In this document: positions 1-40,270 of the stretch, piece after piece
How the letters are laid out: the number at the start of each line of letters is the position of its first letter
Position numbering within the stretch: the stretch's first letter is position 1
Assembly: GCF_054482525.1 (NCBI RefSeq)
Contig: NZ_CM137006.1
Strand: one strand, 5' to 3'
Length of the DNA stretch: 64,000 nt
The notes under the pieces: generated by a model
Seen by the model: the letters and a program-made list of their open reading frames with translations, nothing else
What the model was told of the DNA's origin: nothing
Databases searched by the model: none
Position numbers and translations under genes: made by a program

Positions 1-620
1 GTGACCCGGACGCTAACCCGCGTCTGCGTGCAGCAATTGATAAAGCATTGTCTAACAACATGACCCGTGACACTCTGAACCGCGCAATCGCACGTGGTGT
101 GGGGGGGGATGATGATGCAAACATGGAAACCATCATCTACGAAGGTTACGGTCCTGGCGGCACGGCAATCATGATTGAATGTCTGTCTGACAACCGCAAC
201 CGTACCGTTGCTGAAGTGCGCCATGCATTCAGTAAATGTGGCGGTAACCTCGGTACTGATGGTTCCGTAGCTTATCTGTTCAGCAAAAAAGGCGTGATCT
301 CCTTCGAGAAAGGCGATGAAGACACCATCATGGAAGCAGCCCTGGAAGCAGGTGCTGAAGACGTTGTGACCTATGATGACGGCGCAATTGATGTCTACAC
401 TGCATGGGAAGAAATGGGTAAAGTGCGCGACGCTCTGGAAGCGGCAGGTCTGAAAGCAGACAGCGCGGAAGTTTCCATGATCCCGTCCACCAAAGCTGAT
501 ATGGATGCAGAAACCGCACCGAAACTGATGCGTCTGATCGATATGCTGGAAGATTGCGACGACGTGCAGGAAGTCTACCATAACGGTGAAATCTCTGATG
601 AGGTTGCAGCGACTCTCTGA
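1..620 (+). CDS. yebC: YebC/PmpR-family transcriptional regulator, 3' portion (5' end lies upstream of window)
   Basis: Open frame runs from window start to TGA at 618-620; translation (…[49 protein letters not shown]…) matches the YebC family; position immediately upstream of ruvC as in E. coli. Confidence 0.9.
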
Positions 621-654
621 TGGGGCCTGCTAAACAGCAAAACGGAGACGCGTG

Positions 655-1176
655 ATGGCTATTATTCTCGGCATTGACCCGGGTTCGCGCGTGACCGGCT
701 ATGGCGTCATCCGCCAGGTAGGCAGGCAATTGTCCTACCTGGGTAGCGGATGCATACGCACCAAAGTGGATGATTTACCGTCTCGTCTGAAGCTCATCTA
801 TGCGGGCGTGACGGAAATCATTACCCAGTTCCAGCCTGATTATTTCGCCATTGAACAAGTCTTTATGGCGAAGAACGCTGACTCAGCCCTGAAACTGGGG
901 CAGGCACGCGGCGTGGCGATTGTGGCGGCGGTGAATCAGGAATTGCCGGTATTTGAATATGCGGCACGTCAGGTAAAGCAAACGGTGGTAGGTATTGGTA
1001 GTGCTGAAAAAAGCCAGGTGCAGCATATGGTCCGCACCTTGCTGAAACTGCCCGCTAATCCACAGGCGGATGCTGCCGATGCATTAGCTATCGCGATTAC
1101 CCATTGTCACGTCAGTCAGAATGCGATGCAGATGAGCGAATCGCGGCTGAACCTGGCGAGAGGGCGACTGCGTTAA
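655..1176 (+). CDS. ruvC: Holliday junction resolvase RuvC
   Basis: ORF 652-1176; ATG at 655 gives [18 protein letters not shown]…, the RuvC N-terminus; 173 aa. Confidence 0.93.
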
Positions 1177-1177
1177 G

Positions 1178-1780
1178 TTATACCGCCTCGGTCAGTTCCG
1201 GCTGAGGCGTTTCCACTCCCTCCGCATGAATCAACACCAAACCCGGATGATGCCACAAACTGGCTGGCGTGACGGTTTTACGCTCCCACGGAATAGAACC
1301 TAAGAACCAGAATTTCCAGAAAGTGAGTTTTGCATTCGGATTGCTATTTAACAATTCTCCAAACGTCTCTATTTCACCCACCGGAATACATAGCGCCTTT
1401 TTATAAATATCAAAAACAAATTTTGAACAGAACTGGCGCGAAGATTCGTATTTAAAACCGGTGTGGTAAAGTTTGCGTAGCCGGGAGGGAACCTGTTCAA
1501 CAATTCGTTGTTTTTGTTGTTCTGTAAGCCCGGCGTCTAATCGCTTTATAGCATAGCGTTGATTAGAAGAACGTTTAATAAAACGAGATAGCGTGGTGAT
1601 GGTTGAAAGGGGAACCCGGCTTTCTGCAACCATGAAGTCTTCACCGTTATGACCGATAATGATCCCGACGTGATTACTCCAGCAATTTGATGCAGCTGAT
1701 ATTTGACCAAATAAGGCAGCACCTATACATGTAAAGACGATATCACCAATTTCATATTCAGCAGGATAATTAATATTCAC
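1178..1780 (-). CDS. yebB: YebB (DUF830-family protein)
   Basis: 200-aa ORF between ruvC and ruvA on the opposite strand; sequence and position match E. coli YebB as recalled. Confidence 0.8.
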
Positions 1781-1987
1781 ATTGTCATTCCATTGAAATA
1801 GATACGAATATACGTAATAGCATAAAAAATTTATTTTTTCAGGAGGCGCAATATGTATTTTTATTACGCATTTCTTCGCTGAATATGTAATATTTAAATA
1901 TTTGCTTCCAATATAACCTGTAGAATAAATTATACTGCGCCATTTTTCAGATCATCGGGACGCCTCGCAAGTTTTCTTCATCCTTCG

Positions 1988-2003
1988 CTGGATATCTATC
2001 CAG
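1988..2003. promoter_or_regulatory. LexA operator (SOS box) upstream of ruvAB
   Basis: CTGGATATCTATCCAG fits the CTG-N10-CAG palindromic LexA consensus; about 50 bp upstream of the ruvA start. Confidence 0.8.
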
Positions 2004-2054
2004 CATTTTTTTATCATACAGCATTATCTTTGATTCATTACGCAGGAGCGTCAT

Positions 2055-2666
2055 GTGATAGGCAGACTCAGAGGCATCATCATTGAAAAACAACCCCCGC
2101 TGGTGTTAATTGAAGTGGGCGGCGTAGGCTATGAAGTGCATATGCCGATGACCTGTTTTTATGAACTCCCTGAAGCGGGTCAGGAAGCGATCGTTTTCAC
2201 CCACTTTGTGGTGCGTGAAGACGCGCAACTGCTGTACGGTTTTAACAATAAACAAGAGCGCACGTTGTTCAAAGAGTTGATCAAAACCAACGGCGTCGGC
2301 CCGAAGTTGGCGCTGGCGATCCTCTCCGGAATGTCAGCGCAGCAGTTCGTTAATGCCGTTGAGCGTGAAGAAGTGGGGGCACTAGTGAAACTGCCGGGTA
2401 TTGGCAAAAAAACCGCCGAACGCTTGATTGTTGAAATGAAAGACCGATTTAAAGGTTTGCATGGCGATCTCTTTACGCCAGCCGCCGACCTGGTACTCAC
2501 ATCACCTGCCAGCCCGGCGACCGACGATGCTGAACAGGAAGCGGTTGCCGCGCTGGTGGCGCTGGGCTATAAACCACAAGAAGCAAGCCGCATGGTGAGC
2601 AAAATCGCTCGCCCTGACGCCAGCAGTGAAACATTAATTCGCGAAGCCCTACGCGCCGCGTTATGA
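2055..2666 (+). CDS. ruvA: Holliday junction branch-migration protein RuvA
   Basis: 203-aa ORF with GTG start; [31 protein letters not shown]… is the RuvA N-terminus. Confidence 0.93.
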
Positions 2667-2671
2667 GGTAA

Positions 2672-3685
<1,014 letters not shown>

Positions 3686-3689
3686 GTCG

Positions 3690-3830
3690 GATCGGTCGCT
3701 CGCGGCGCATCCGACACTGGCAGTGTTGCCTGATGCGCCGCTATTCGCGTCTTATCAGGCATATACCAGAGATAGCGAACCATAGGTCGGATAAGGCGCT
3801 CGCGCCGCATCCGACAAATGTGTTCAGCGA
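3690..3830. repeat. REP/BIME palindromic-unit cluster in the ruvB-znuB intergenic region
   Basis: Repeated GCCTGATGCGCCGC / GGTCGGATAAGGCGCTCGCGCCGCATCCGACA type imperfect palindromes typical of enterobacterial REP elements. Confidence 0.7.
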
Positions 3831-3834
3831 AAGA

Positions 3835-4620
3835 TTAGCTGGCCTGTTTTTTCATCATACTGAGAATAAATAACAGTGCCGCGCATAGCACCACCGACGG
3901 GCCTGCTGGTGTATCGTAAAATGCGGAAAAGGTTAAACCGCCAGTCACTGCCACCATTCCCACCAAAACAGCGACACCTGCCATCTGTTCCGGCGTGCGG
4001 GCAAAGCGACGTGCAGTAGCAGCAGGAATAATCAGCAACGAAGTAATAATCAACGCGCCGACAAATTTCATCGCTACACCAATCGTCAATGCCGTCACCA
4101 GCATCAACAACAATTTCACGCGCTGTAATTTCACACCATCAACAAACGCCAGATCCGGGCTAATCGTCATCGACAGCAAATTGCGCCATTGCCAGAACAA
4201 AATCGCCACCACGATGACCACGCCAATTGCAATAGAGATGAGATCTTCTGGCGTCACTGCCAGCAAATCACCGAACAGGTAAGCCATCAAATCAACACGA
4301 ATATTAGACATCAGACTAACGACCACCAGGCCCAGCGACAGGGCACTGTGCGCCATAATCCCTAATAACGTGTCGATCGCCAGCTGTGGACGCTTCTCCA
4401 GCCATACCAGACCGCCCGCCAGCAGCAGCGTAACTGCAATCACCGCATAGAATGGATTCACGTCCAGCAACAAACCAAACGCGACACCAAGTAATGAGGC
4501 ATGGGCCAGCGTATCACCGAAATAAGACATACGACGCCAGACCACAAACGAACCCAGCGGACCCGCGGCACAGGCGAGCATGATCCCGGCTAACCAACCG
4601 GGAAATAATAATTCAATCAT
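3835..4620 (-). CDS. znuB: Zinc ABC transporter permease ZnuB
   Basis: 261-aa hydrophobic ORF; 4-bp overlap with the ATPase gene upstream; matches ZnuB. Confidence 0.9.
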
Positions 4621-8812: not shown

Positions 8813-8964
8813 AAAAAGCCTCTCGCGAGGAGAGGCTTCCGCCGTGTGATAAGTTCAAGTTTGCTTCAGAAGATTCGAAATCTGTTGAACTATCATTGAA
8901 CTGTAGGCCGGATGAGGCGTTTTGAACTGCACCCCAAATGTTGGACATAATCTGACATCTGAAG

Positions 8965-9495
8965 GTGCAGTTTATGAAACATTCATTTGAAGTAAAACTT
9001 GCCGCTGTAAATCACTACCTGGCTGGTCATGCAGGCATCATTTCTACGGCAAAACTCTTTCAACTTTCTCACACCAGCCTCTCACACTGGATTAATCTTT
9101 TTCTTCTTCACGGTCCTCGGGCACTGGATTGCAGACACAAGCGTAGCTATTCTCCTGAAGATAAACTTTGCGTGGTTCTTTATGCTCTCGGGCATTCTGA
9201 GTCTCTACCCCGGGTAGCTGCCCGGTTTAACATTCCCAGCCACAACACGGTTAAAAACTGGATAAAAGGCTACCGCAAATCTGGTAATGAGGCCTTTATC
9301 AGGCGCAGGAAGGAGAAAAGCATGACCCGTTCTGATGATACCCATGAAAACGAGGCAAACATGACGCCGGAAGAGATGAAGAATGAGCTGCGTTATCTTC
9401 GCGCAGAAAATGCATATCTGAAAGCCATGCAGGAGCATCTCCTGGAAAAAAAGCGCCAGGAGCTGGAGAAAAAACGAAAGTCATCCGGAGCCTGA
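8965..9495 (+). CDS. IS3-family transposase OrfA (HTH DNA-binding, leucine-zipper region)
   Basis: 176-aa ORF; N-terminal region resembles IS150-group OrfA; contains the slippery heptamer A_AAA_AAG at 9447-9453 in frame. Confidence 0.85.
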   Translation: MQFMKHSFEVKLAAVNHYLAGHAGIISTAKLFQLSHTSLSHWINLFLLHGPRALDCRHKRSYSPEDKLCVVLYALGHSESLPRVAARFNIPSHNTVKNWIKGYRKSGNEAFIRRRKEKSMTRSDDTHENEANMTPEEMKNELRYLRAENAYLKAMQEHLLEKKRQELEKKRKSSGA

Positions 9496-9599
9496 GGTGC
9501 GGACACTGCCAGTCTGACCTGTTAAAGGCTGCAGGGCTGGCCAGAAGCACGCTGTACTACCAGCTGTCACTGCAGAAGGCTAAGGACAAGTATGCTGAT

Positions 9600-10354
<755 letters not shown>

Positions 10355-14866: not shown

Positions 14867-16678
14867 ATGAATCCACAATTGTTACGCGTAACAAATCGAA
14901 TCATTGAACGTTCGCGCGAGACTCGCTCTGCTTACCTCGCCCGGATAGAACAAGCGAAAACTTCGACCGTTCATCGTTCGCAGTTGGCATGTGGTAACCT
15001 GGCACACGGTTTCGCTGCCTGCCAGCCAGAAGACAAAGCCTCTTTGAAAAGCATGTTGCGTAACAATATCGCCATCATCACCTCCTATAACGACATGCTC
15101 TCCGCGCACCAGCCTTATGAACACTATCCAGAAATCATTCGTAAAGCCCTGCATGAAGCAAATGCGGTTGGTCAGGTTGCGGGCGGTGTTCCGGCGATGT
15201 GTGATGGTGTCACCCAGGGGCAGGATGGAATGGAATTGTCGCTGTTAAGCCGCGAAGTGATTGCGATGTCTGCGGCGGTGGGGTTGTCCCATAACATGTT
15301 TGATGGTGCGCTGTTCCTCGGAGTGTGCGACAAGATTGTTCCGGGTCTGACTATGGCAGCCCTGTCGTTTGGGCATTTGCCTGCGGTGTTTGTGCCGTCT
15401 GGACCGATGGCAAGCGGTTTGCCAAATAAAGAAAAAGTGCGTATTCGCCAGCTTTATGCCGAAGGTAAAGTGGACCGCATGGCATTACTGGAGTCAGAAG
15501 CCGCGTCTTATCATGCGCCGGGAACATGTACTTTCTACGGTACTGCCAACACCAACCAGATGGTGGTGGAGTTTATGGGGATGCAGTTGCCAGGCTCTTC
15601 TTTTGTTCATCCGGATTCTCCGCTGCGCGATGCTTTGACCGCAGCCGCTGCGCGCCAGGTTACACGCATGACCGGTAATGGTAATGAATGGATGCCGATC
15701 GGTAAGATGATAGATGAGAAAGTGGTGGTGAACGGTATCGTTGCACTGCTGGCGACCGGTGGTTCCACTAACCACACCATGCACCTGGTGGCGATGGCAC
15801 GCGCGGCCGGTATTCAGATTAACTGGGATGACTTCTCTGACCTTTCTGATGTTGTACCGCTGATGGCACGTCTCTACCCGAACGGTCCGGCCGATATTAA
15901 CCACTTCCAGGCGGCAGGTGGCGTACCGGTTCTGGTGCGTGAACTGCTCAAAGCAGGCCTGCTGCATGAAGATGTCAATACGGTGGCAGGCTTTGGTCTG
16001 TCTCGTTATACCCTTGAACCATGGCTGAATAATGGTGAACTGGACTGGCGGGAAGGGGCGGAAAAATCACTCGACAGCAATGTGATCGCTTCCTTCGAAC
16101 AACCTTTCTCTCATCATGGTGGGACAAAAGTGTTAAGCGGTAACCTGGGCCGTGCGGTTATGAAAACCTCTGCCGTGCCGGTTGAGAACCAGGTGATTGA
16201 AGCGCCTGCGGTTGTTTTTGAAAGCCAGCATGACGTTATGCCGGCCTTTGAAGCGGGTTTGCTGGACCGCGATTGTGTCGTTGTTGTCCGTCATCAGGGG
16301 CCAAAAGCGAACGGAATGCCAGAATTACATAAACTCATGCCGCCACTTGGTGTATTATTGGACCGGTGTTTCAAAATTGCGTTAGTTACTGATGGACGAC
16401 TCTCCGGCGCTTCAGGTAAAGTGCCGTCAGCTATCCACGTAACACCAGAAGCCTACGATGGCGGGCTGCTGGCAAAAGTGCGCGACGGGGACATCATTCG
16501 TGTGAATGGACAGACAGGCGAACTGACGCTGCTGGTAGACGAAGCGGAACTGGCTGCTCGCGAACCACACATTCCTGACCTGAGCGCGTCACGCGTGGGA
16601 ACAGGACGTGAATTATTCAGCGCCTTGCGTGAAAAACTGTCCGGTGCCGAACAGGGCGCAACCTGTATCACTTTTTAA
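14867..16678 (+). CDS. edd: Phosphogluconate dehydratase
   Basis: 603-aa ORF of the IlvD/Edd dehydratase family; followed directly by eda. Confidence 0.95.
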
Positions 16679-16714
16679 GACGACAAATTTGTAATCAGGC
16701 GAGAGAAAACTCTG

Positions 16715-17356
16715 ATGAAAAACTGGAAAACAAGTGCAGAATCAATCCTGACCACCGGCCCGGTTGTACCGGTTATCGTGGTAAAAAAACTGGAACACGC
16801 GGTGCCGATGGCAAAAGCGTTGGTTGCTGGTGGGGTGCGCGTTCTGGAAGTGACTCTGCGTACCGAGTGTGCAGTTGACGCTATCCGTGCTATCGCCAAA
16901 GAAGTGCCTGAAGCGATTGTGGGTGCCGGTACGGTGCTGAATCCACAGCAGCTGGCAGAAGTCACCGAAGCGGGTGCACAGTTCGCAATTAGCCCGGGGC
17001 TGACCGAGCCGCTGCTGAAGGCTGCTACCGAAGGGACTATTCCTCTGATTCCGGGGATCAGCACTGTTTCCGAACTGATGCTGGGTATGGACTACGGTTT
17101 GAAAGAGTTCAAATTCTTCCCGGCTGAAGCTAACGGCGGTGTGAAAGCCCTGCAGGCGATCGCGGGTCCGTTCTCCCAGGTCCGTTTCTGCCCGACGGGT
17201 GGTATTTCTCCGGCTAACTACCGTGACTACCTGGCGCTGAAAAGCGTGCTGTGCATCGGTGGTTCCTGGCTGGTTCCGGCAGATGCGCTGGAAGCGGGCG
17301 ATTACGACCGCATTACTAAGCTGGCGCGTGAAGCTGTAGAAGGCGCTAAGCTGTAA
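16715..17356 (+). CDS. eda: KDPG / KHG aldolase
   Basis: 213-aa [53 protein letters not shown]…; matches Eda. Confidence 0.95.
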
Positions 17357-17361
17357 AAGTC

Positions 17362-17391
17362 AAAATGCCCGATCGAGGATCGGGCATTTTT
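17362..17391. terminator. Bidirectional intrinsic terminator between convergent eda and purT
   Basis: ATGCCCGATC…GATCGGGCAT hairpin flanked by an A-run and a T-run. Confidence 0.75.
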
Positions 17392-17410
17392 GTAGCGTTT
17401 TTCGCCGGGG

Positions 17411-18589
17411 TTAAGCTTGTACTTTTATCTGTGCTGCGGCGTGCTTTGCGCGCTCAATCGCTTCATCAACACTCTCTGCAGTAGCCAGTGCCACCCCCAG
17501 ACGACGGCTGCCATCAATTTCCGGCTTACCAAATAAACGAATCTGTAGGCCTGCGCCTACGGCATTCTGCACATTATCAAACGTGACATTCTGACTGGTC
17601 AGTTGTGGCAGGATAACGGCAGAAGCTGCAGGACCATACTGACGGATCCCGCCAACCGGAAGTCCGAGGAAGGCACGTACATGCAGGGCAAACTCTGAGA
17701 GATCCTGAGAAATTAACGTCACCATCCCGGTATCATGTGGACGAGGGGAGACCTCACTGAAAATCACCTCATCACCACAGACAAACAGCTCGACACCAAA
17801 CAGACCATAACCGCCCAGTGCCAGCACCACTTTACGGGCAATCTCTTGCGCACGTTCAAGGGCAAGCTGGCTCATTTGCTGTGGTTGCCAGGATTCACGG
17901 TAGTCGCCATCTTCCTGGCGATGACCTACTGGTGCACAGAAATGGACGCCATCCACCGCGCTGACGGTTAGCAGGGTAATTTCGAAGTCAAACTTAACGA
18001 CGCCTTCAACAATTACGCGGCCCGCTCCGGCGCGACCGCCTTGCTGAGCGTACTCCCATGCATGAGCAAGTTGCTCTGCAGAACGAATAAACGTCTGCCC
18101 CTTGCCGGAGGAACTCATCACCGGTTTAACAATGCAGGGATAGCCGATTTCAGCAACCGCCTCGCGGAAAAGGTTTTCGTTATCGGCAAAACGATAAGTG
18201 GAAGTGGGCAGCTGCAGCTCTTCTGCCGCCAGGCGACGGATACCCTCGCGATTCATCGTTAATTTCGTTGCGCGCGCGCAGGGGACAACATTCAGTCCTT
18301 CCTCTTCAAGTTGGATCAGCATATCGGTGGCAATAGCTTCGATCTCCGGCACGATATAATGTGGTTTTTCCAGTTCAACCACACGGCGTAATGCATCACC
18401 ATCAAGCATATTAATGACATGGGAGCGATGCGCGACATGCATGGCTGGTGCGTCGGCATAGCGATCAACGGCAATCACTTCTACGCCGAGACGCTGACAC
18501 TCGATTGCCACTTCTTTACCCAGTTCACCGGAGCCTAATAACATCACGCGAGTTGCTGCCGGACGCAGCGCAGTGCCTAATAACGTCAT
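17411..18589 (-). CDS. purT: Formate-dependent phosphoribosylglycinamide formyltransferase (GAR transformylase 2)
   Basis: 392-aa ATP-grasp [47 protein letters not shown]…; matches PurT. Confidence 0.93.
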
Positions 18590-18626
18590 AACGAATATCC
18601 CCTGATTAATTCCGCGCGCAGTATAA

Positions 18627-18642
18627 ACGAAAACGTTTGCGC
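18627..18642. promoter_or_regulatory. PurR operator-like site upstream of purT
   Basis: ACGAAAACGTTTGCGC, a palindrome fitting the PurR box core AAACGTTT, about 40 bp upstream of the purT start on the opposite strand. Confidence 0.6.
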
Positions 18643-18687
18643 GTGTCTTTATTGCTGATGTTGATTTCCCAACCGAAAAGAAATATA

Positions 18688-18703
18688 CTGTATAAAATCA
18701 CAG
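18688..18703. promoter_or_regulatory. LexA operator (SOS box) upstream of yebG
   Basis: CTGTATAAAATCACAG matches CTGT-N8-ACAG; 20 bp upstream of the yebG start. Confidence 0.85.
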
Positions 18704-18722
18704 TTATTATGAGAGGCTGCAA

Positions 18723-19013
18723 ATGGCGGTTGAAGTTAAATACGTAGTCATTCGTGAGGGCGAAGAGAAAATGTCGTTTACCAGCAAAAAGGAAGCCGAT
18801 GCTTATGACAAAATGCTTGATACGGCGGATCTGCTTGACACCTGGCTGACAAATTCTCCAGTGCAAATGGAAGACGAGCAACGTGAAGCCCTTTCGCTAT
18901 GGCTGGCAGAACAAAAAGATGTGCTTAGCACCATTCTGAAAACCGGCAAATTACCGTCCCCACAGGTCGTCGGTGCTGAATCCGAAGAGGAAGATGCCTC
19001 ACACGCGGCCTGA
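18723..19013 (+). CDS. yebG: SOS-inducible protein YebG
   Basis: 96-aa ORF MAVEVKYVVIREGEEKMSFTSKKEADAYDKMLD…; LexA box upstream. Confidence 0.9.
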   Translation: MAVEVKYVVIREGEEKMSFTSKKEADAYDKMLDTADLLDTWLTNSPVQMEDEQREALSLWLAEQKDVLSTILKTGKLPSPQVVGAESEEEDASHAA

Positions 19014-19031
19014 AGCAACTTGCGCTCCTGA

Positions 19032-19436
<405 letters not shown>

Positions 19437-19762
19437 TGGCTTCTGATAATTCGATTGACCGTTGGCGGATGCGGCGCGAATGCCTTGTCCGCCCCACAAC
19501 GCACCACAATCGTAGGCCTGAGAAGACGCAACAGCGTCGCATCGGGCAATCAGCATCAAACAGTGCTACTCAAAACGTCAAACTACTTTCACCTAAAATA
19601 CCCTTATCACCTGATATACAGTGAACACCTTACCTGGCGCGAATTTCTTTGAATAACGGCCTACCGACCCGCTTATTTGCGCATCTTTTGTCTCGATATA
19701 CATTTTCTGACATCCTCATCCGCTATGCTACAGGCACTAAAAATGGTTATTGAGGAGCAAAT

Positions 19763-20422
19763 ATGGCTAACTGGTTAAATCAACTGCAATCCTTGCTTGG
19801 GCAAAGCAGTTCTTCTGCCTCCTCGTCTGCGGATCAGGGATTGGGCAAACTTTTAGTGCCAGGCGCATTAGGCGGACTGGCTGGGCTGCTGGTCGCAAAT
19901 AAATCAGCACGTAAACTTCTTACGAAATATGGCACCAACGCGTTACTGGTTGGCGGCGGAGCGGTCGCGGGTACGGTGCTGTGGAATAAATACAAAGATA
20001 AAATTCGCGCGGCGCATCAGGACGAACCGCAGTTTGGCGCGCAAAGTACGCCGCTGGATGAGCGTACGGAACGTTTGATCCTTGCGCTGGTCTTTGCCGC
20101 TAAAAGTGATGGTCATATTGATGCCAAAGAACGTGCGGCAATCGACCTGCAATTGCGTGAAGCCGGCGTGGAAGAACAGGGGCGTGTACTCATTGAGCAG
20201 GCAATCGAACAACCGCTGGATCCACAACGCCTGGCTACCGGGGTCCGCAATGAAGAAGAGGCGCTGGAAATCTATTTCCTGAGCTGCGCGGCTATTGATA
20301 TTGACCATTTTATGGAACGCAGTTACCTGAATGCACTGGGTGACGCGCTGAAAATCCCCCAGGATGTTCGTGACGGCATTGAACGCGATCTCGAACAGCA
20401 AAAACGTACTTTGGCGGAATAA
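19763..20422 (+). CDS. yebE: Inner-membrane protein YebE (DUF533)
   Basis: 219-aa [41 protein letters not shown]…; matches YebE. Confidence 0.88.
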
Positions 20423-20585
20423 TTCCGCTCTCTGGATAGCCTGAAGTTGACTATTTCGGGCTATCCAGAACCGCACAGCCATTTGAGCAGGCTGATTTTC
20501 TCTGTCTGCATAACATTCGATATCCGCGCCATTACCTGTCATCATGTGACTGCTCCCCGCCCTGTCGGGCGAGGCTTCCCACTTC

Positions 20586-21762
20586 TTAAGCCGCAACCGT
20601 CTGTGTGACGGATTTACGCTGGCCTCCATGGGCAGAAACGACGAGTCCCGCCGCTTGTAATTCCAGTATGCCCTTGCGTTTGATGTTGAGCGCCGCGTTG
20701 ATATCGCGGTCATGTTCAACTCCACACTCTGGACACTGCCAGATGCGCTTATGTAATGGCATCTCCGACATTTTGTGACAGCAGCAGTGGCAGGTCTTCG
20801 AACTGGCGAACCATTGATCCAGTTTCACCAGATGCACACCTTTCTCTGTTGCTTTGTATTCCAGTTTTGTGATGAATCCAGACCATCCAGCATCGCCTAT
20901 CGCACGAGCCAGATGGTGATTTTTCATCATATTTGCCGTTTTCAATGTCTCGACAATTACCGCTTGGTTTTCGTCAACAATTGCGCGAGATAACTTGTGC
21001 TGGAAATCGGCACGGGCACTGGCTACCCGTTCGTGAACGGCTGCAAGTTGTATTCTGGCTTTGCGCCTGTTTGCGCTCCCTTTTTTCTTACGGGACAGTG
21101 CTTCCTGCTTCCTGCTTCCGGCGCAGGTTGCGACTTGCATTGATTAGGTGGCGGGGACTGGCAATTTTATTGCCGTCCGATTTGATGACAAAATGCGCCA
21201 GCCCCATATCCAGCCCTGTCACATTTGATATCAGTGCGGGCTTTGCCGGCGCTTCCATCCCGTCGTCACAGAGTAACGACGCGTAGTATTTCCCGGTTGC
21301 GCTGCGGCTCAACGTGATACTTTTCAGCATTCCCGTAATTTCACGATGTAAACGCGCTTCAATCGGCAAGATTTTCGGTATTTTTATCGCACCATCAAGG
21401 ACTTTTATGCCAACACAATGATAGCTCGATTGTCTGCCGTGTTTACTTTTAAAGGTTGGTTTACCTGCTTTCAGTTTCGGATTGAAAAAGTTAGAAAAAG
21501 CCACGTCGAGGTTAATTACCGCCTGCTGCAACGCAATAGAATCATATTCTTTAAGCCATCCATACCGGCGGGATTTCTTCGCCACTGCAAGCAGTGGTTT
21601 GAGGTCTTTACGCGGGTTTAAATTTACGCGGTGCCGCTGGTAAGAATGTTTCTTGATATGCAGAGCTTTGTTGTACGCAAAACGCACTGCACCGAACTGG
21701 GCGTTGATAAATTCAGCCTGTTCTGGTGTCGGATAGATGCGTACTTTTGTTGCTCTTAACAT
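20586..21762 (-). pseudogene. tnpB: tnpB (OrfB_IS605 / RuvC-like RNA-guided nuclease family), frameshifted
   Basis: Two consecutive minus-strand ORFs in different frames (21088-21762 and 20586-21140). The N-terminal part has TnpB-like start MLRATKVRIYPTPEQAEFIN… and the RuvC-I motif GLDMGL; the C-terminal part has the RuvC-II region, a CxxC…CxxC zinc finger and RuvC-III. The frame break coincides with three tandem copies of TGCTTCC at 21099-21119. Confidence 0.8.
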
Positions 21763-21818
21763 AATCAGCGCTCATTGATATAATGCTTTTATTTTAACAC
21801 TTTAGGTGAATATATCAA

Positions 21819-22232
21819 TTGAGTAATCATGATGATTTACTGGCGGGATTTCTCCGCAAACGACACAGTGTCAGTAAGCTGGTTGTGCACCTTATTTTTA
21901 CGACAAAGTATCGACGCAAACTATTCGACAGTCAGATGATCGCTCAGTTGCGTGAGGCTTTTGGCTCCGCTGCGGCAAAGCTTGAATGCGAAATTATTGA
22001 GATGGACGGGGAGCCAGACCATGTACACCTGCTGGTTGCCTACCCGCCAAAACTGGCGGTCAGTGTGATGGTCAATAATTTAAAATCGGTATCATCACGT
22101 TTGCTACGCCAGCAGAACGCGCATTTACGTATGCAGAGTAAAACGGGGCTTTTGTGGTCGAGATCGTACTTTGTCTGTAGCACCGGAGAGGCAACGATTG
22201 AAACGCTCAGAGCCTACGTTCAGAGTCAGTAA
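21819..22232 (+). CDS. tnpA: IS200/IS605-family Y1 (HuH) transposase TnpA
   Basis: 137-aa ORF with HuH motif (…PDHVHLLVAYPPK…) and a C-terminal catalytic-Tyr region (…RSYFVCSTGEA…); divergent from tnpB. Confidence 0.8.
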   Translation: MSNHDDLLAGFLRKRHSVSKLVVHLIFTTKYRRKLFDSQMIAQLREAFGSAAAKLECEIIEMDGEPDHVHLLVAYPPKLAVSVMVNNLKSVSSRLLRQQNAHLRMQSKTGLLWSRSYFVCSTGEATIETLRAYVQSQ

Positions 22233-22373
22233 ACACCTGATTGATCTTTAAAGCCCTGCGGGCTTTTCGCCTTATATCCCCGCCCGCATTGGGCGAGGGT
22301 TTACGGCGTTTTTCGCTAAGCAATGACTACCCTGTTTCGCTTGCATCTCCGGTGAGTTTTGCCACCCTTATAA

Positions 22374-25120
<2,747 letters not shown>

Positions 25121-27533: not shown

Positions 27534-27875
27534 ATGATGAAAAAAAGTATTCTGGCGTTTCTGTTACTCACCAGTTCTGCAGCGGCGCTGGCGGCACCGC
27601 AGGTGATTACCGTCAGTCGTTTTGAAGTGGGTAAAGACAAATGGGCATTTAACCGCGAAGAGGTGATGCTGACTTGCCGACCGGGTAATGCTTTGTATGT
27701 CATTAACCCAAGTACTCTCGTGCAGTATCCGTTAAACGATATTGCACAAAAAGAAGTCGCCAGCGGGAAGACTAAAGCCCAGCCCATATCGGTGATTCAG
27801 ATTGATGATCCCAACAATCCCGGCGAAAAAATGAGTCTGGCACCGTTTATAGAACGAGCTGATAAACTCTGTTAA
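27534..27875 (+). CDS. yebY: DUF2511 periplasmic protein YebY
   Basis: 113-aa ORF with signal peptide [20 protein letters not shown]; third gene of the yobA-yebZ-yebY cluster. Confidence 0.85.
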
Positions 27876-27904
27876 TTACCTAAAATAGCCTTTTGATTTC
27901 CAAT

Positions 27905-27947
27905 AAAAAACCGCCTCAGTTCTTTCACCAGAACAGGCGGTTTTTAA
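27905..27947. terminator. Bidirectional intrinsic terminator (yebY and antisense sRNA RyeA)
   Basis: AAAAACCGCCTCAGTTCT…AGAACAGGCGGTTTTT: GC-rich imperfect hairpin flanked by an A-run and a T-run. Confidence 0.6.
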
Positions 27948-28032
27948 CATTTAAGCTAATGACCCCCACGCTTTTTATTGACCATTTTGCACGCAAACTG
28001 GAAAACCTGGCGTCGTCATCTATTCTTAAAGG

Positions 28033-28135
28033 GCAAGGCAACTAAGCCTGCATTAATGCCAACTTTTAGCGCACGGCTCTCTCCCAAGAGCCATTTCCCT
28101 GGACCGAATACAGGAATCGTGTTCGGTCTCTTTTT
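28033..28135 (+). ncRNA. sdsR: RpoS-dependent small RNA SdsR (RyeB)
   Basis: GCAAGGCAACTAAGCCTGCATTAATGCCAACTTTTAGCGCACGGCTCTCTCCCAAGAGCC… ending in a hairpin plus T5 matches the SdsR sequence as I recall it; it lies between yebY and pphA as in E. coli. Confidence 0.75.
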
Positions 28136-28269
28136 ATCTGTTAAAAGCCAGAAGCATTCCTTTCGCTGACTTTATAGTCAACCATAACACACACTCTACT
28201 GTCTGAGTCCAGCATTTTTTAACATTCCTGTTAAGATTATGTGATCTTTAGCGCGGGAGGAAAATATTG

Positions 28270-28926
28270 ATGAAACAGCCTGCGCCCGTTTATCAGAGAA
28301 TTGCGGGTCATCAATGGCGACATATCTGGCTTTCAGGCGATATACACGGTTGTCTTGAGCAGTTGCGCCGCAAATTATGGCATTGTCGTTTTGATCCGTG
28401 GCGAGATTTACTTATCTCAGTGGGAGACGTTATCGATCGTGGGCCGCAAAGTTTACGTTGCCTGCAGTTACTGGAACAACATTGGGTTCGTGCGGTAAGA
28501 GGCAATCATGAACAGATGGCGATGGATGCGCTGGCATCCCAGCAGATGTCTTTATGGTTGATGAATGGCGGCGACTGGTTTATTGCGCTGGCAGATAATC
28601 AACAGAAACAAGCGAAAGCGGCGCTGGAAAAATGTCAGCATTTGCCCTTTATTCTTGAAGTACACAGTCGCACCGGCAAACATGTTATTGCTCATGCCGA
28701 TTATCCAGATGATGTTTATGAATGGCAAAAGGACGTTGATTTGCATCAGGTCTTGTGGAGCCGCTCGCGATTAAGTGAACGCCAAAAAGTGCAGGGAATT
28801 ACAGGTGCTGATCATTTCTGGTTTGGTCATACACCGTTGCGCCATCGCGTGGATATTGGCAACCTGCATTATATTGATACAGGTGCTGTCTTTGGGGGCG
28901 AACTGACTGTTGTGCAATTGCAATAA
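28270..28926 (+). CDS. pphA: Serine/threonine protein phosphatase 1 (PPP-family metallophosphatase)
   Basis: ATG at 28270 gives MKQPAPVYQRIAGHQWRHIWLSGDIHGCLEQL… with GDIHG and GNHE metallophosphatase motifs; 218 aa. Confidence 0.9.
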   Translation: MKQPAPVYQRIAGHQWRHIWLSGDIHGCLEQLRRKLWHCRFDPWRDLLISVGDVIDRGPQSLRCLQLLEQHWVRAVRGNHEQMAMDALASQQMSLWLMNGGDWFIALADNQQKQAKAALEKCQHLPFILEVHSRTGKHVIAHADYPDDVYEWQKDVDLHQVLWSRSRLSERQKVQGITGADHFWFGHTPLRHRVDIGNLHYIDTGAVFGGELTVVQLQ

Positions 28927-29118
28927 TTAAAAATCACCGTACTCCTGTGCAGGTCGCCAGAAACCATCTATAAAATCCTCAATCGGAAAACAACCGCCAT
29001 GGCGGATCCGTTGATCGCTCATAGAATAAAGACACTGCTGTTCCGTGTTGTAGACATCCACAACAATATCTTCACAACCGCCATCCAGGTAGCAAACAAA
29101 AAGTACCAGCGCGAACAT
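28927..29118 (-). CDS. yebW: Small uncharacterised protein YebW
   Basis: ATG (complement 29116-29118) gives MFALVLFVCYLDGGCEDIVVDVYNTEQQCLYSMSDQRIRHGG…; 63 aa; the track ORF is a longer in-frame extension. Confidence 0.7.
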   Translation of the reverse strand: MFALVLFVCYLDGGCEDIVVDVYNTEQQCLYSMSDQRIRHGGCFPIEDFIDGFWRPAQEYGDF

Positions 29119-29222
29119 TTCATCCCCGAAGTGTGGTGCCGTACCGTTAAGTTTAGGAGAGATTTTACAACGGGGAAATAACCAGGACAAATAACCCGCC
29201 ATGCCGACGGGTTCTTTTTGGA

Positions 29223-29459
29223 TCAGGCAAGACGCATAATCCAGGCATCAGATTGTTGATCGTAACGGGTACGGTAAAGGACAGAGTGTTCGCCATTTAG
29301 CAGGGCGGGAATACTGGTTTCAGCATCCCAGGCATCCAGTTGCATACATAAATCGGGGTCTGATTTACAAGGAATGGTTAACGTTCGATCACCCGGCGAT
29401 TCGCCGTGTAATTCGCCGTCGTCGATTTCAAAAGCGCCTATGCGCACACTGGTTTTCAT
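29223..29459 (-). CDS. yebV: Small uncharacterised protein YebV
   Basis: ATG (complement 29457-29459) gives MKTSVRIGAFEIDDGELHGESPGDRTLTIPCKSDPDLCMQLDAWD…; 78 aa. Confidence 0.75.
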   Translation of the reverse strand: MKTSVRIGAFEIDDGELHGESPGDRTLTIPCKSDPDLCMQLDAWDAETSIPALLNGEHSVLYRTRYDQQSDAWIMRLA

Positions 29460-39592: not shown

Positions 39593-40270
39593 TGCACAGA
39601 AAACCCCCAGCTAGGCTGGGGGTTCCGGAAAGCTTTCAGCTTTGAGCCAGTTATTAAAACCCCTTTTGATTTGTTAAAACACCTTGCGGTCTGGCAACTG
39701 CAAGTGTCAAACAAGAAATCAAAAGGGGGTCCCAATGGGGAACGAAAAGAGCTTAGCGCACACCCGATGGAACTGTAAATATCACATAGTTTTTGCGCTA
39801 AAATACCGAAGACAGGTGTTCTACAGAGAGAAGCGTAGAGCAATAGGCAGTATTTTGAGAAAGCTGTGTGAGTGGAAAAGCGTACGGATTCTGGAAGCTG
39901 AATGCTGTGCAGATCATATCCATATGCTTGTGGAGATCCCGCCCAAAATGAGCGTATCCGGGTTTATGGGATATCTGAAAGGGAAAAGCAGTCTGATGCT
40001 TTACGAGCAGTTTGGTGATTTGAAATTCAAATACAGGAACAGGGAGTTCTGGTGCAGAGGGTACTACGTCGATACAGTGGGTAAGAACACGGCGAAGATA
40101 CAGGATTACATAAAGCACCAGCTTGAAGAGGATAAAATGGGAGAGCAGTTATCGATTCCCTATCCGGGCAGCCCGTTTACGGGCCGTAAGTAACGAAGTT
40201 GGATGCAAATGTCAGATCGTGTGCGCCTGTTAGGGCGCGGCTGGTAAGAGAGCCTTATAGGCGCATTTGA
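39593..40270 (+). mobile_element. IS200 insertion sequence (boundaries approximate)
   Basis: Contains an IS200 tnpA; left end carries the two characteristic stem-loops (CCCCCAGC-TAG-GCTGGGGG at 39604-39622, and an RBS-sequestering helix pairing 39660-39672 with 39716-39729 just before the ATG); IS200 lacks terminal inverted repeats, so the ends are estimated. Confidence 0.8.
39735..40193 (+). CDS. tnpA: IS200 transposase TnpA (HuH Y1 transposase)
   Basis: ATG at 39735 gives MGNEKSLAHTRWNCKYHIVFALKYRRQVFY…HIHMLVEIPPK…RGYYVDTVG…; 152 aa; near-identical to IS200 TnpA as recalled. Confidence 0.9.
   Translation: MGNEKSLAHTRWNCKYHIVFALKYRRQVFYREKRRAIGSILRKLCEWKSVRILEAECCADHIHMLVEIPPKMSVSGFMGYLKGKSSLMLYEQFGDLKFKYRNREFWCRGYYVDTVGKNTAKIQDYIKHQLEEDKMGEQLSIPYPGSPFTGRK

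Follow-up and report, generated by a model that had tools for sequence, protein, structure and literature searches.

Slipped-strand mispairing at short tandem repeats within coding sequence underlies the contingency (phase-variable) loci known from Haemophilus and Neisseria. In Escherichia coli, variable-number tandem repeats (VNTRs) with units of 6 to 7 bp mutate via whole-unit insertions and deletions (PMC3777172), and for the nuclease TnpB, RNA-guided cleavage of the vacated site is known to promote transposon retention (PMC10055086). Here we describe a short tandem repeat inside a tnpB gene, that of ISEc46, an insertion sequence (IS) of the IS200/IS605 family, in a 64,000-nucleotide stretch of contig NZ_CM137006.1 (assembly GCF_054482525.1), hereafter called the window. 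We consider it highly probable that this tnpB was inactivated by a slipped-strand event that added one unit to an unstable 7-bp repeat specific to one E. coli lineage.

The tnpB tract resembles contingency loci and the VNTRs of E. coli O157 in gaining whole units, in having a unit that 3 does not divide evenly, so that the frame shifts with every gain, and in being polymorphic in copy number among near-identical strains. Unlike contingency loci, it is very short (2 to 7 units), lineage-specific, created recently by a point mutation, and unconserved in its family. It is also like ordinary IS pseudogenization, as in the tnpA gene of E. coli 042, in that a single frameshift affects one gene of an old inherited copy, but here the lesion lies in a changing tract with several allelic states, one of which is back in frame. 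The frameshift itself is ordinary IS decay, already annotated in RefSeq. What is new is the lineage-specific VNTR behavior and its single-transition origin, as an instance of well-known slipped-strand frameshifting and not as a new mechanism. Neither was found in the literature searched, where no TnpB was among the top results for phase variation and tandem repeats, and where ISEc46 appears only in resistome and mobilome surveys naming the element.

A third heptamer splits tnpB into two frames

On the plus strand, positions 21099 to 21119 consist of three perfect copies of TGCTTCC, as the initial annotation had described, which read (GGAAGCA)x3 on the coding (minus) strand and add 7 nt relative to the intact allele. 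Tandem Repeats Finder reports an array of period 7 with 3.0 copies and 100% matches. This is the sole 100%-perfect array of at least three copies within the window, and its 14-mer, TGCTTCCTGCTTCC, is unique to the tract there (shuffled sequences predict 0.03 matches).

The tnpB pseudogene (positions 20586 to 21762, minus strand) is 1177 nt long, compared with 1170 nt and 389 amino acids (aa) in the intact form. Two open reading frames (ORFs) cover it, both on the minus strand and both running as first described. The upstream frame (21088 to 21762; 224 aa) encodes the HTH/WED/REC region together with Asp185 of RuvC-I (GLDMG) and ends ...NLRRKQEAGSTVP-stop (...RRKQEAGSTVP), while the downstream frame (20586 to 21140; 184 aa), which reads MQVATCAGSRKQEALSRKKKGSANRRKARIQLAAVHERVA..., carries the TnpB continuation with the RuvC-II Glu269, the RuvC-III Asp351, and the zinc finger. 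On the NCBIfam IS200_TnpB profile (360 positions), the 224-aa ORF covers 2 to 214 and the 184-aa ORF continues over 211 to 360, so they are the two halves of one TnpB. The heptamers encode RRKQEA, directly before a conserved LSRKKKGS segment. Removal of one heptamer in silico yields a continuous TnpB of 389 aa, which bears out the suggestion that two copies would give a single protein of about 390 aa, and an otherwise identical two-copy allele exists in nature (strain 19KM1831 and public contig L026), as expected if the frame was shifted by the gain of one 7-bp unit. RefSeq annotates an intact 389-aa protein for the two-unit tnpB of strains EC581, 19KM1831, and 042, and labels as frameshifted both the three-copy gene (PCN033 and SCU-102) and the four-copy gene (19KM1776).

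The intact TnpB aligns with its closest structurally solved relative, ISDra2 TnpB (E = 2.6e-74). Residues D185, E269, and D351 align with the ISDra2 catalytic residues D191, E278, and D361, and the zinc-finger cysteines C322, C325, C341, and C344 are encoded as well. ISEc46 is thus like ISDra2 (PDB 8exa, 8bf8, and 8h1j) in its conserved D/E/D triad and zinc finger, whereas the window copy differs by the extra heptamer that frameshifts tnpB, by the substitutions K218E and G326C, and by a tnpA gene without its last four codons. In the window, the RuvC D-E-D triad and the zinc finger are not found in a single polypeptide, since D185 is encoded in the upstream frame and the others in the downstream one; the sequence with one unit deleted would encode them all together. 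Because deep mutational scanning of ISDra2 TnpB found truncating stop codons to be depleted except at the extreme C terminus (PMC11844463), the 224-aa product is expected to be inactive.

The perfect repeat and the K218E substitution

Whether the repeat is perfect depends on position 21104, which is C on the plus strand of the window, giving GAA (Glu218) on the coding strand, and T elsewhere, giving AAA (Lys218) and the unit TGCTTTC. The pair in EC581 and 042 is accordingly imperfect, GGAAGCA GAAAGCA (RKQKA; TGCTTTC TGCTTCC on the plus strand), while that of the window haplotype is a perfect GGAAGCA GGAAGCA. Every other intact allele sampled has Lys218, among them those of 042 and EC581 and one from Salmonella that carries 34 substitutions. 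The 48 homologues aligned (76 to 99% identical; from Hafnia, Photorhabdus, Xenorhabdus, Proteus, Yersinia, Salmonella, Klebsiella, and others) all have Lys at position 218 and show no indel at this point; none has three copies with another frame solution, and the tract is not kept as a family-wide feature. Since Lys218 is found in all of the other sampled alleles and in 48/48 homologues, Glu218 is, on this comparison, the derived state, and a single A-to-G transition (K218E) is, by the same comparison, the change that created the perfect 14-bp direct duplication.

A 79-nt query containing the perfect two-copy sequence matched 287 complete-genome records. Strain 19KM1831 is the sole perfect match; 19KM1776, with four copies, aligned in two pieces, and PCN033 and SCU-102 aligned with a 7-nt gap. 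The other 283 of the 287 records have at least one mismatch, and those examined carry the imperfect pair. The imperfect two-copy state of nearly all other ISEc46 copies, and with it the K218E origin of the repeat, was overlooked in the initial annotation.

Copy-number states across genomes

With a 121-bp query, the site was found in 467 records of a complete-genome collection that does not include the window. Three copies are present in PCN033 and SCU-102 and four in 19KM1776, and the rest give a 114-bp match with two units, in BLAST alignments whose 6+1 gaps mask the mismatch of the imperfect repeat. The predicted products of one to eight copies on the E218 haplotype were looked up by exact sequence in public contigs. 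The intact two-copy product (389 aa) is found on 20 contigs, and the truncated products of three copies (224 aa) and four copies (248 aa) on 190 and 98, making the window's allele the commonest. Five copies are again in frame, with GSRKQEA inserted in a protein of 396 aa (37 contigs), and truncated products of six copies (231 aa) and seven copies (255 aa) occur on 3 contigs and 1 contig, respectively. The truncated one-copy product (241 aa) and the in-frame eight-copy product (403 aa) are absent from public contigs. In total, out-of-frame alleles (3, 4, 6, and 7 copies) account for 292 contigs versus at most 57 for in-frame alleles. The five-copy allele is, judging from its translation, a restoration of the reading frame in nature.

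The alleles of two, three, four, five, six, and seven units were all confirmed at the DNA level, and the retrieved contigs of every copy state carry them at the yebE-ptrB site. Across a 17-kb flank, only 0 to 2 single-nucleotide polymorphisms (SNPs) separate the sequences with two copies (L025 and L026), three (seven sequences), four (two), five (two), and six (one), and the seven-copy contig (L027) has 1 to 2 mismatches in 20.7 kb against two of these loci. The tract thus behaves as a VNTR, with whole units of at least 6 bp differing between strains, and the proposal that it is a substrate for slippage is borne out by the presence of all six states on one nearly invariant haplotype. Four of the contigs (L014, L020, L021, and L025) carry four different prophages beside yebY (96.9 to 98.3% identical) and hence represent distinct sublineages, not re-sequenced isolates.

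Expansion was also sought on other backgrounds. Control lookups for the imperfect repeat, covering both of its possible unit gains on two N-terminal haplotypes apiece, were negative, as were lookups of three- and four-copy forms on the common A124 haplotype. No expansion of the imperfect pair was found in the remaining 464 of the 467 complete-genome records or in the protein lookups. Among 20 matching plasmid records in PLSDB, there were no expanded alleles, one record of 80 to 90% identity being left uninspected, and a metagenome scan for three or more copies returned no matches.

A second lineage, at a distance of about 66 SNPs, accounts for the other perfect two-copy sequences (19KM1831, L023, and L024). 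Strain 19KM1831 differs from the window clade by about 408 SNPs in 49 kb (about 0.85% divergent), with the exception of one identical segment. This segment, positions 15646 to 24016 (8.4 kb including the IS), which the ST597-like clade and 19KM1831 share without a single difference, indicates a recombination tract that moved the E218 tnpB allele between lineages. We also considered 19KM1831 as evidence of reversion and rejected it, as it is of a different lineage and shares only the 8.4 kb; it shows the ancestral haplotype, not a reversion. The two-copy alleles of L025 and L026 may themselves be ancestral, and a search of the assemblies for a change from three copies back to two yielded none that could be demonstrated.

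Probable slippage at a newly formed repeat and its alternatives

These data suggest a route by which tnpB was lost. The ancestral imperfect pair (GGAAGCA GAAAGCA) was converted by the K218E transition into a perfect 14-bp duplication, between whose units replication slippage would then add or remove whole units, and from three units upward the tract would behave as a small VNTR. Each unit change shifts the frame by 7 nt, with two, five, and eight copies in frame. At three, four, six, or seven copies, TnpB is truncated after the RuvC-I Asp and the parts beyond it (RuvC-II, RuvC-III, and the zinc finger) fall into another frame, and by homology to ISDra2 the truncation would abolish RNA-guided DNA cleavage and hence the homing and retention function. 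Slippage is suggested because the variation consists of whole-unit changes only, is confined to the perfect repeat, and falls in frequency from three to seven copies. That the point mutation was the enabling step, a threshold for instability, is supported by the apparent stability of the imperfect pair, which shows no expansion in complete-genome records, plasmid matches, or protein lookups.

In a sample stratified by copy number, at least 4 to 5 tract changes are seen versus 6 singleton SNPs in 17 kb, which would put the tract mutation rate at roughly 10^4 times that of a single base. The base-substitution rate is about 2e-10 per generation. As a rough estimate, the tract rate would then be of the order of 1e-6 to 1e-5 per generation, a crude figure that is probably biased upward. 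The multiple-locus VNTR analysis (MLVA) loci of E. coli O157 have measured rates of 4.4e-5 to 1.8e-3 (PMC3777172), above this estimate.

Several points weigh against this account. Slippage is read indirectly, from the whole-unit pattern, the contig counts are not independent and are inflated by clonal sampling, and parsimony strictly requires only about 5 changes. The loss of activity is predicted by homology, and the protein may have been impaired by K218E even before its frame was shifted. In the window, moreover, tnpB has a lesion besides the heptamer, G326C.

The possible effect of K218E leads to a different order of events, in which this substitution had already cost TnpB all or nearly all of its function, the heptamer gain was secondary, and the tract has since drifted under no selection, the gene being dead already. 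All 48 homologues have Lys218, Glu is a charge reversal within an Arg/Lys-rich segment (NLRRKQKALSRKKKGS), positive charges near the nucleic acid favor the activity of ISDra2 TnpB (PMC11844463), and the allele frequencies appear neutral. However, the aligned residue of ISDra2 TnpB is Gln (Q227), so the position need not be basic, and 20 contigs, mostly of the second lineage (19KM1831-like), carry the two-copy ORF with E218 intact. We regard prior inactivation by K218E as unlikely. Less probable still is a contingency locus, in which frequent, reversible slippage would be selected and would toggle a homing nuclease between dead (3, 4, 6, and 7 copies) and potentially live (2 and 5 copies) states, for instance to weigh keeping the IS against the harm done by double-strand breaks of its own making. 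Such a role would be consistent with a 7-bp unit, not a multiple of 3, inside an ORF, with six copy-number states on one haplotype, and with the in-frame alleles, that of five copies on 37 contigs and that of two copies on the clonal haplotype (L025 and L026). Yet the repeat is not conserved, being imperfect and of constant length in other ISEc46 copies and in the 48 homologues, and the tract is short at 2 to 7 units. The 292 out-of-frame versus at most 57 in-frame contigs, with a monotonic fall from three to seven copies and no in-frame excess, fit neutral decay better than switching; the 7-aa insertion of the five-copy allele is without precedent in the 48 homologues; and the rough rate of 1e-6 to 1e-5 is below those measured for VNTRs (PMC3777172). 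Selected switching is in our judgment very unlikely. Of the reversible ON/OFF state raised in the initial annotation, the labile tract and the return to frame at five copies stand, while the reversion from three copies to two could not be demonstrated. An AlphaFold2 model of the five-copy protein from a 50-sequence alignment had a mean pLDDT (predicted local distance difference test score) of 54, with values below 50 at residues 213 to 303, and was unusable for judging the insertion.

Two further explanations would leave the gene functional or the repeat unreal. Programmed ribosomal frameshifting or transcriptional slippage might yield full-length TnpB from the three-copy allele, and an A6G3 run (GAAAAAAGGG, positions 21078 to 21087, minus strand) does lie directly after the stop of the upstream frame. 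To work, though, such recoding would have to move the ribosome by +1 upstream of the TAA at 21088 to 21090, where the final sense codons, GTC CCG TAA, allow no +1 re-pairing; the A-run is downstream of the stop and hence of no help, and family members are nearly all plain in-frame genes, so that recoding would not be expected. Inspection of the sequence revealed no slippery site ahead of the TAA, and we rejected programmed recoding as extremely improbable. The chance that faulty sequencing or assembly produced the third copy is close to negligible: independent complete genomes with origins in China, the USA, and Switzerland share the allele, which also recurs in many other assemblies (draft, ENA, and Logan), and a 7-bp unit is unlike the typical homopolymer-type error.

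Slippage after K218E, as we favor it, makes the locus a clean natural example of the birth of a microsatellite or VNTR, in which an imperfect pair that holds its length in hundreds of genomes and in many genera became a perfect duplication that then expanded stepwise to seven copies in one E. coli lineage, in a 17-kb flank that is essentially unchanged. The tract is usable as a high-resolution typing marker for the lineage, and the natural allelic series (K218, E218, the 7-aa insertion, and the truncations) for testing the role of TnpB in retention of a single-copy chromosomal IS. As a caution for annotation, a TnpB labeled frameshifted at the yebE-ptrB site represents allelic states, not sequencing errors. 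Should toggling be true after all, RNA-guided self-cleavage could be switched off and on heritably and reversibly, for the IS or for the host lineage, and this would be the first phase-variable TnpB.

ISEc46 and its insertion site

The element, assigned to the IS605 family from the outset, is ISEc46, a 1770-bp member of the IS200/IS605 family (positions 20546 to 22315, minus strand) located between yebE and ptrB, and RefSeq copies annotated as ISEc46 share 99% DNA identity with it. Alignment to the empty site of K-12 gives its bounds and shows a flush insertion between 20545 and 22316, with no duplicated target bases. In the tnpB sense, the 22315 side is the left end (LE) and the 20546 side the right end (RE). 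The K-12 junction reads, in the same sense, ...CTTAG/ATGATGACAGGTAATGG..., and the flank adjoining the LE terminates in ...CTTAG, a putative target motif or target-adjacent motif (TAM).

In place of terminal inverted repeats, the ends have subterminal imperfect hairpins, both on the tnpB-sense (minus) strand. The RE hairpin, CCTCGCCC-GACA-GGGCGGGG, lies 9 nt from the end of the element (20555 to 20574; folding energy, -8.4 kcal/mol; z = -2.1), and the LE hairpin, also found by a repeat search, lies 16 nt from the end (22278 to 22299; -13 kcal/mol; z = -3.1). Their geometry matches that of IS608-type elements and marks them as LE and RE. An Rfam 15 scan of 20300 to 22500 gave no matches, and so no omega/reRNA family; the 3' end of tnpB and the right end of the element, where such an RNA would be encoded, are intact and identical to those of relatives.

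The tnpA gene (21819 to 22232, plus strand), oriented divergently from tnpB, encodes a Y1 (HUH) transposase that RefSeq names an ISEc46 family transposase and that matches the NCBIfam profile NF033573, transpos_IS200 (E = 1.1e-41; 142 bits, with a cutoff of 55). Its product is 137 aa in the window and 141 aa in relatives, where the stop is at 22244. The window element is thus like annotated ISEc46 in its divergent tnpA and tnpB, its hairpins at both ends, and its lack of target duplication. ISEc46 TnpA is found on at least 1000 public contigs. Because about 400 of 5426 complete E. coli genomes carry ISEc46 at yebE-ptrB, the insertion is, to judge from this distribution, old and vertically inherited. 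E. coli 042 (NC_017626.1) has the same insertion with tnpA annotated as frameshifted and tnpB as an intact 389-aa gene (27720 to 29370 of the retrieved locus L012).

The window strain and its relatives

The nearest relative of the window is PCN033, with 7 SNPs in 62.6 kb, a strain of sequence type 597 (ST597), serogroup O11, and phylogroup D (PMC9828833). With 2 to 4 private SNPs each in about 48 kb, the window and the strains PCN033, SCU-102, and 19KM1776 form a near-clonal group. Two private changes of the window fall in ISEc46. At 20780 (tnpB, minus strand), the zinc-finger motif CHCCGHK becomes CHCCCHK (G326C), and at 22231 (tnpA, plus strand), a C-to-A change turns TCA into TAA, with loss of the last four codons; the resulting 137-aa TnpA (WP_458911846.1) is on one contig only in a public collection of 15 billion proteins. 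Two of the 7 SNPs relative to PCN033 are thus inside the 1.77-kb element, where about 0.2 would be expected. This excess may reflect relaxed constraint on a dead element, or chance.

Other mobile elements also vary among these strains. The window has an additional IS1397 relative to PCN033 (8924 to 10354; IS3 family; ORFs at 8965 to 9495 and 9600 to 10322), in sequence resembling repetitive extragenic palindromes between lpxM and pykA. The near-clonal PCN033, SCU-102, and 19KM1776 lack it; the unrelated 19KM1831 has an IS1397 annotated between the same two genes. Between yebQ and htpX lies an IS200C tnpA (about 39735 to 40193, plus strand), at which 19KM1831 has two tandem IS200 copies and SCU-102 has four clustered differences from the clade (39799 to 40076); the clustering suggests gene conversion from another IS200 copy.

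Finally, the prophages beside yebY (positions 1 to 3880 of the four contigs, corresponding to about 28140 onward in the window) are lambdoid or Rac-like, with integrase, Exc, RecT, and exonuclease VIII, and use the same attachment site. We tried this prophage as a phylogenetic marker and set it aside, because it differs among all four contigs named above and the tree cannot be rooted with it. At that site, the window and PCN033 instead have pphA, yebW, and yebV, and the position next to yebY seems to be a hotspot of integration whose occupants change quickly.

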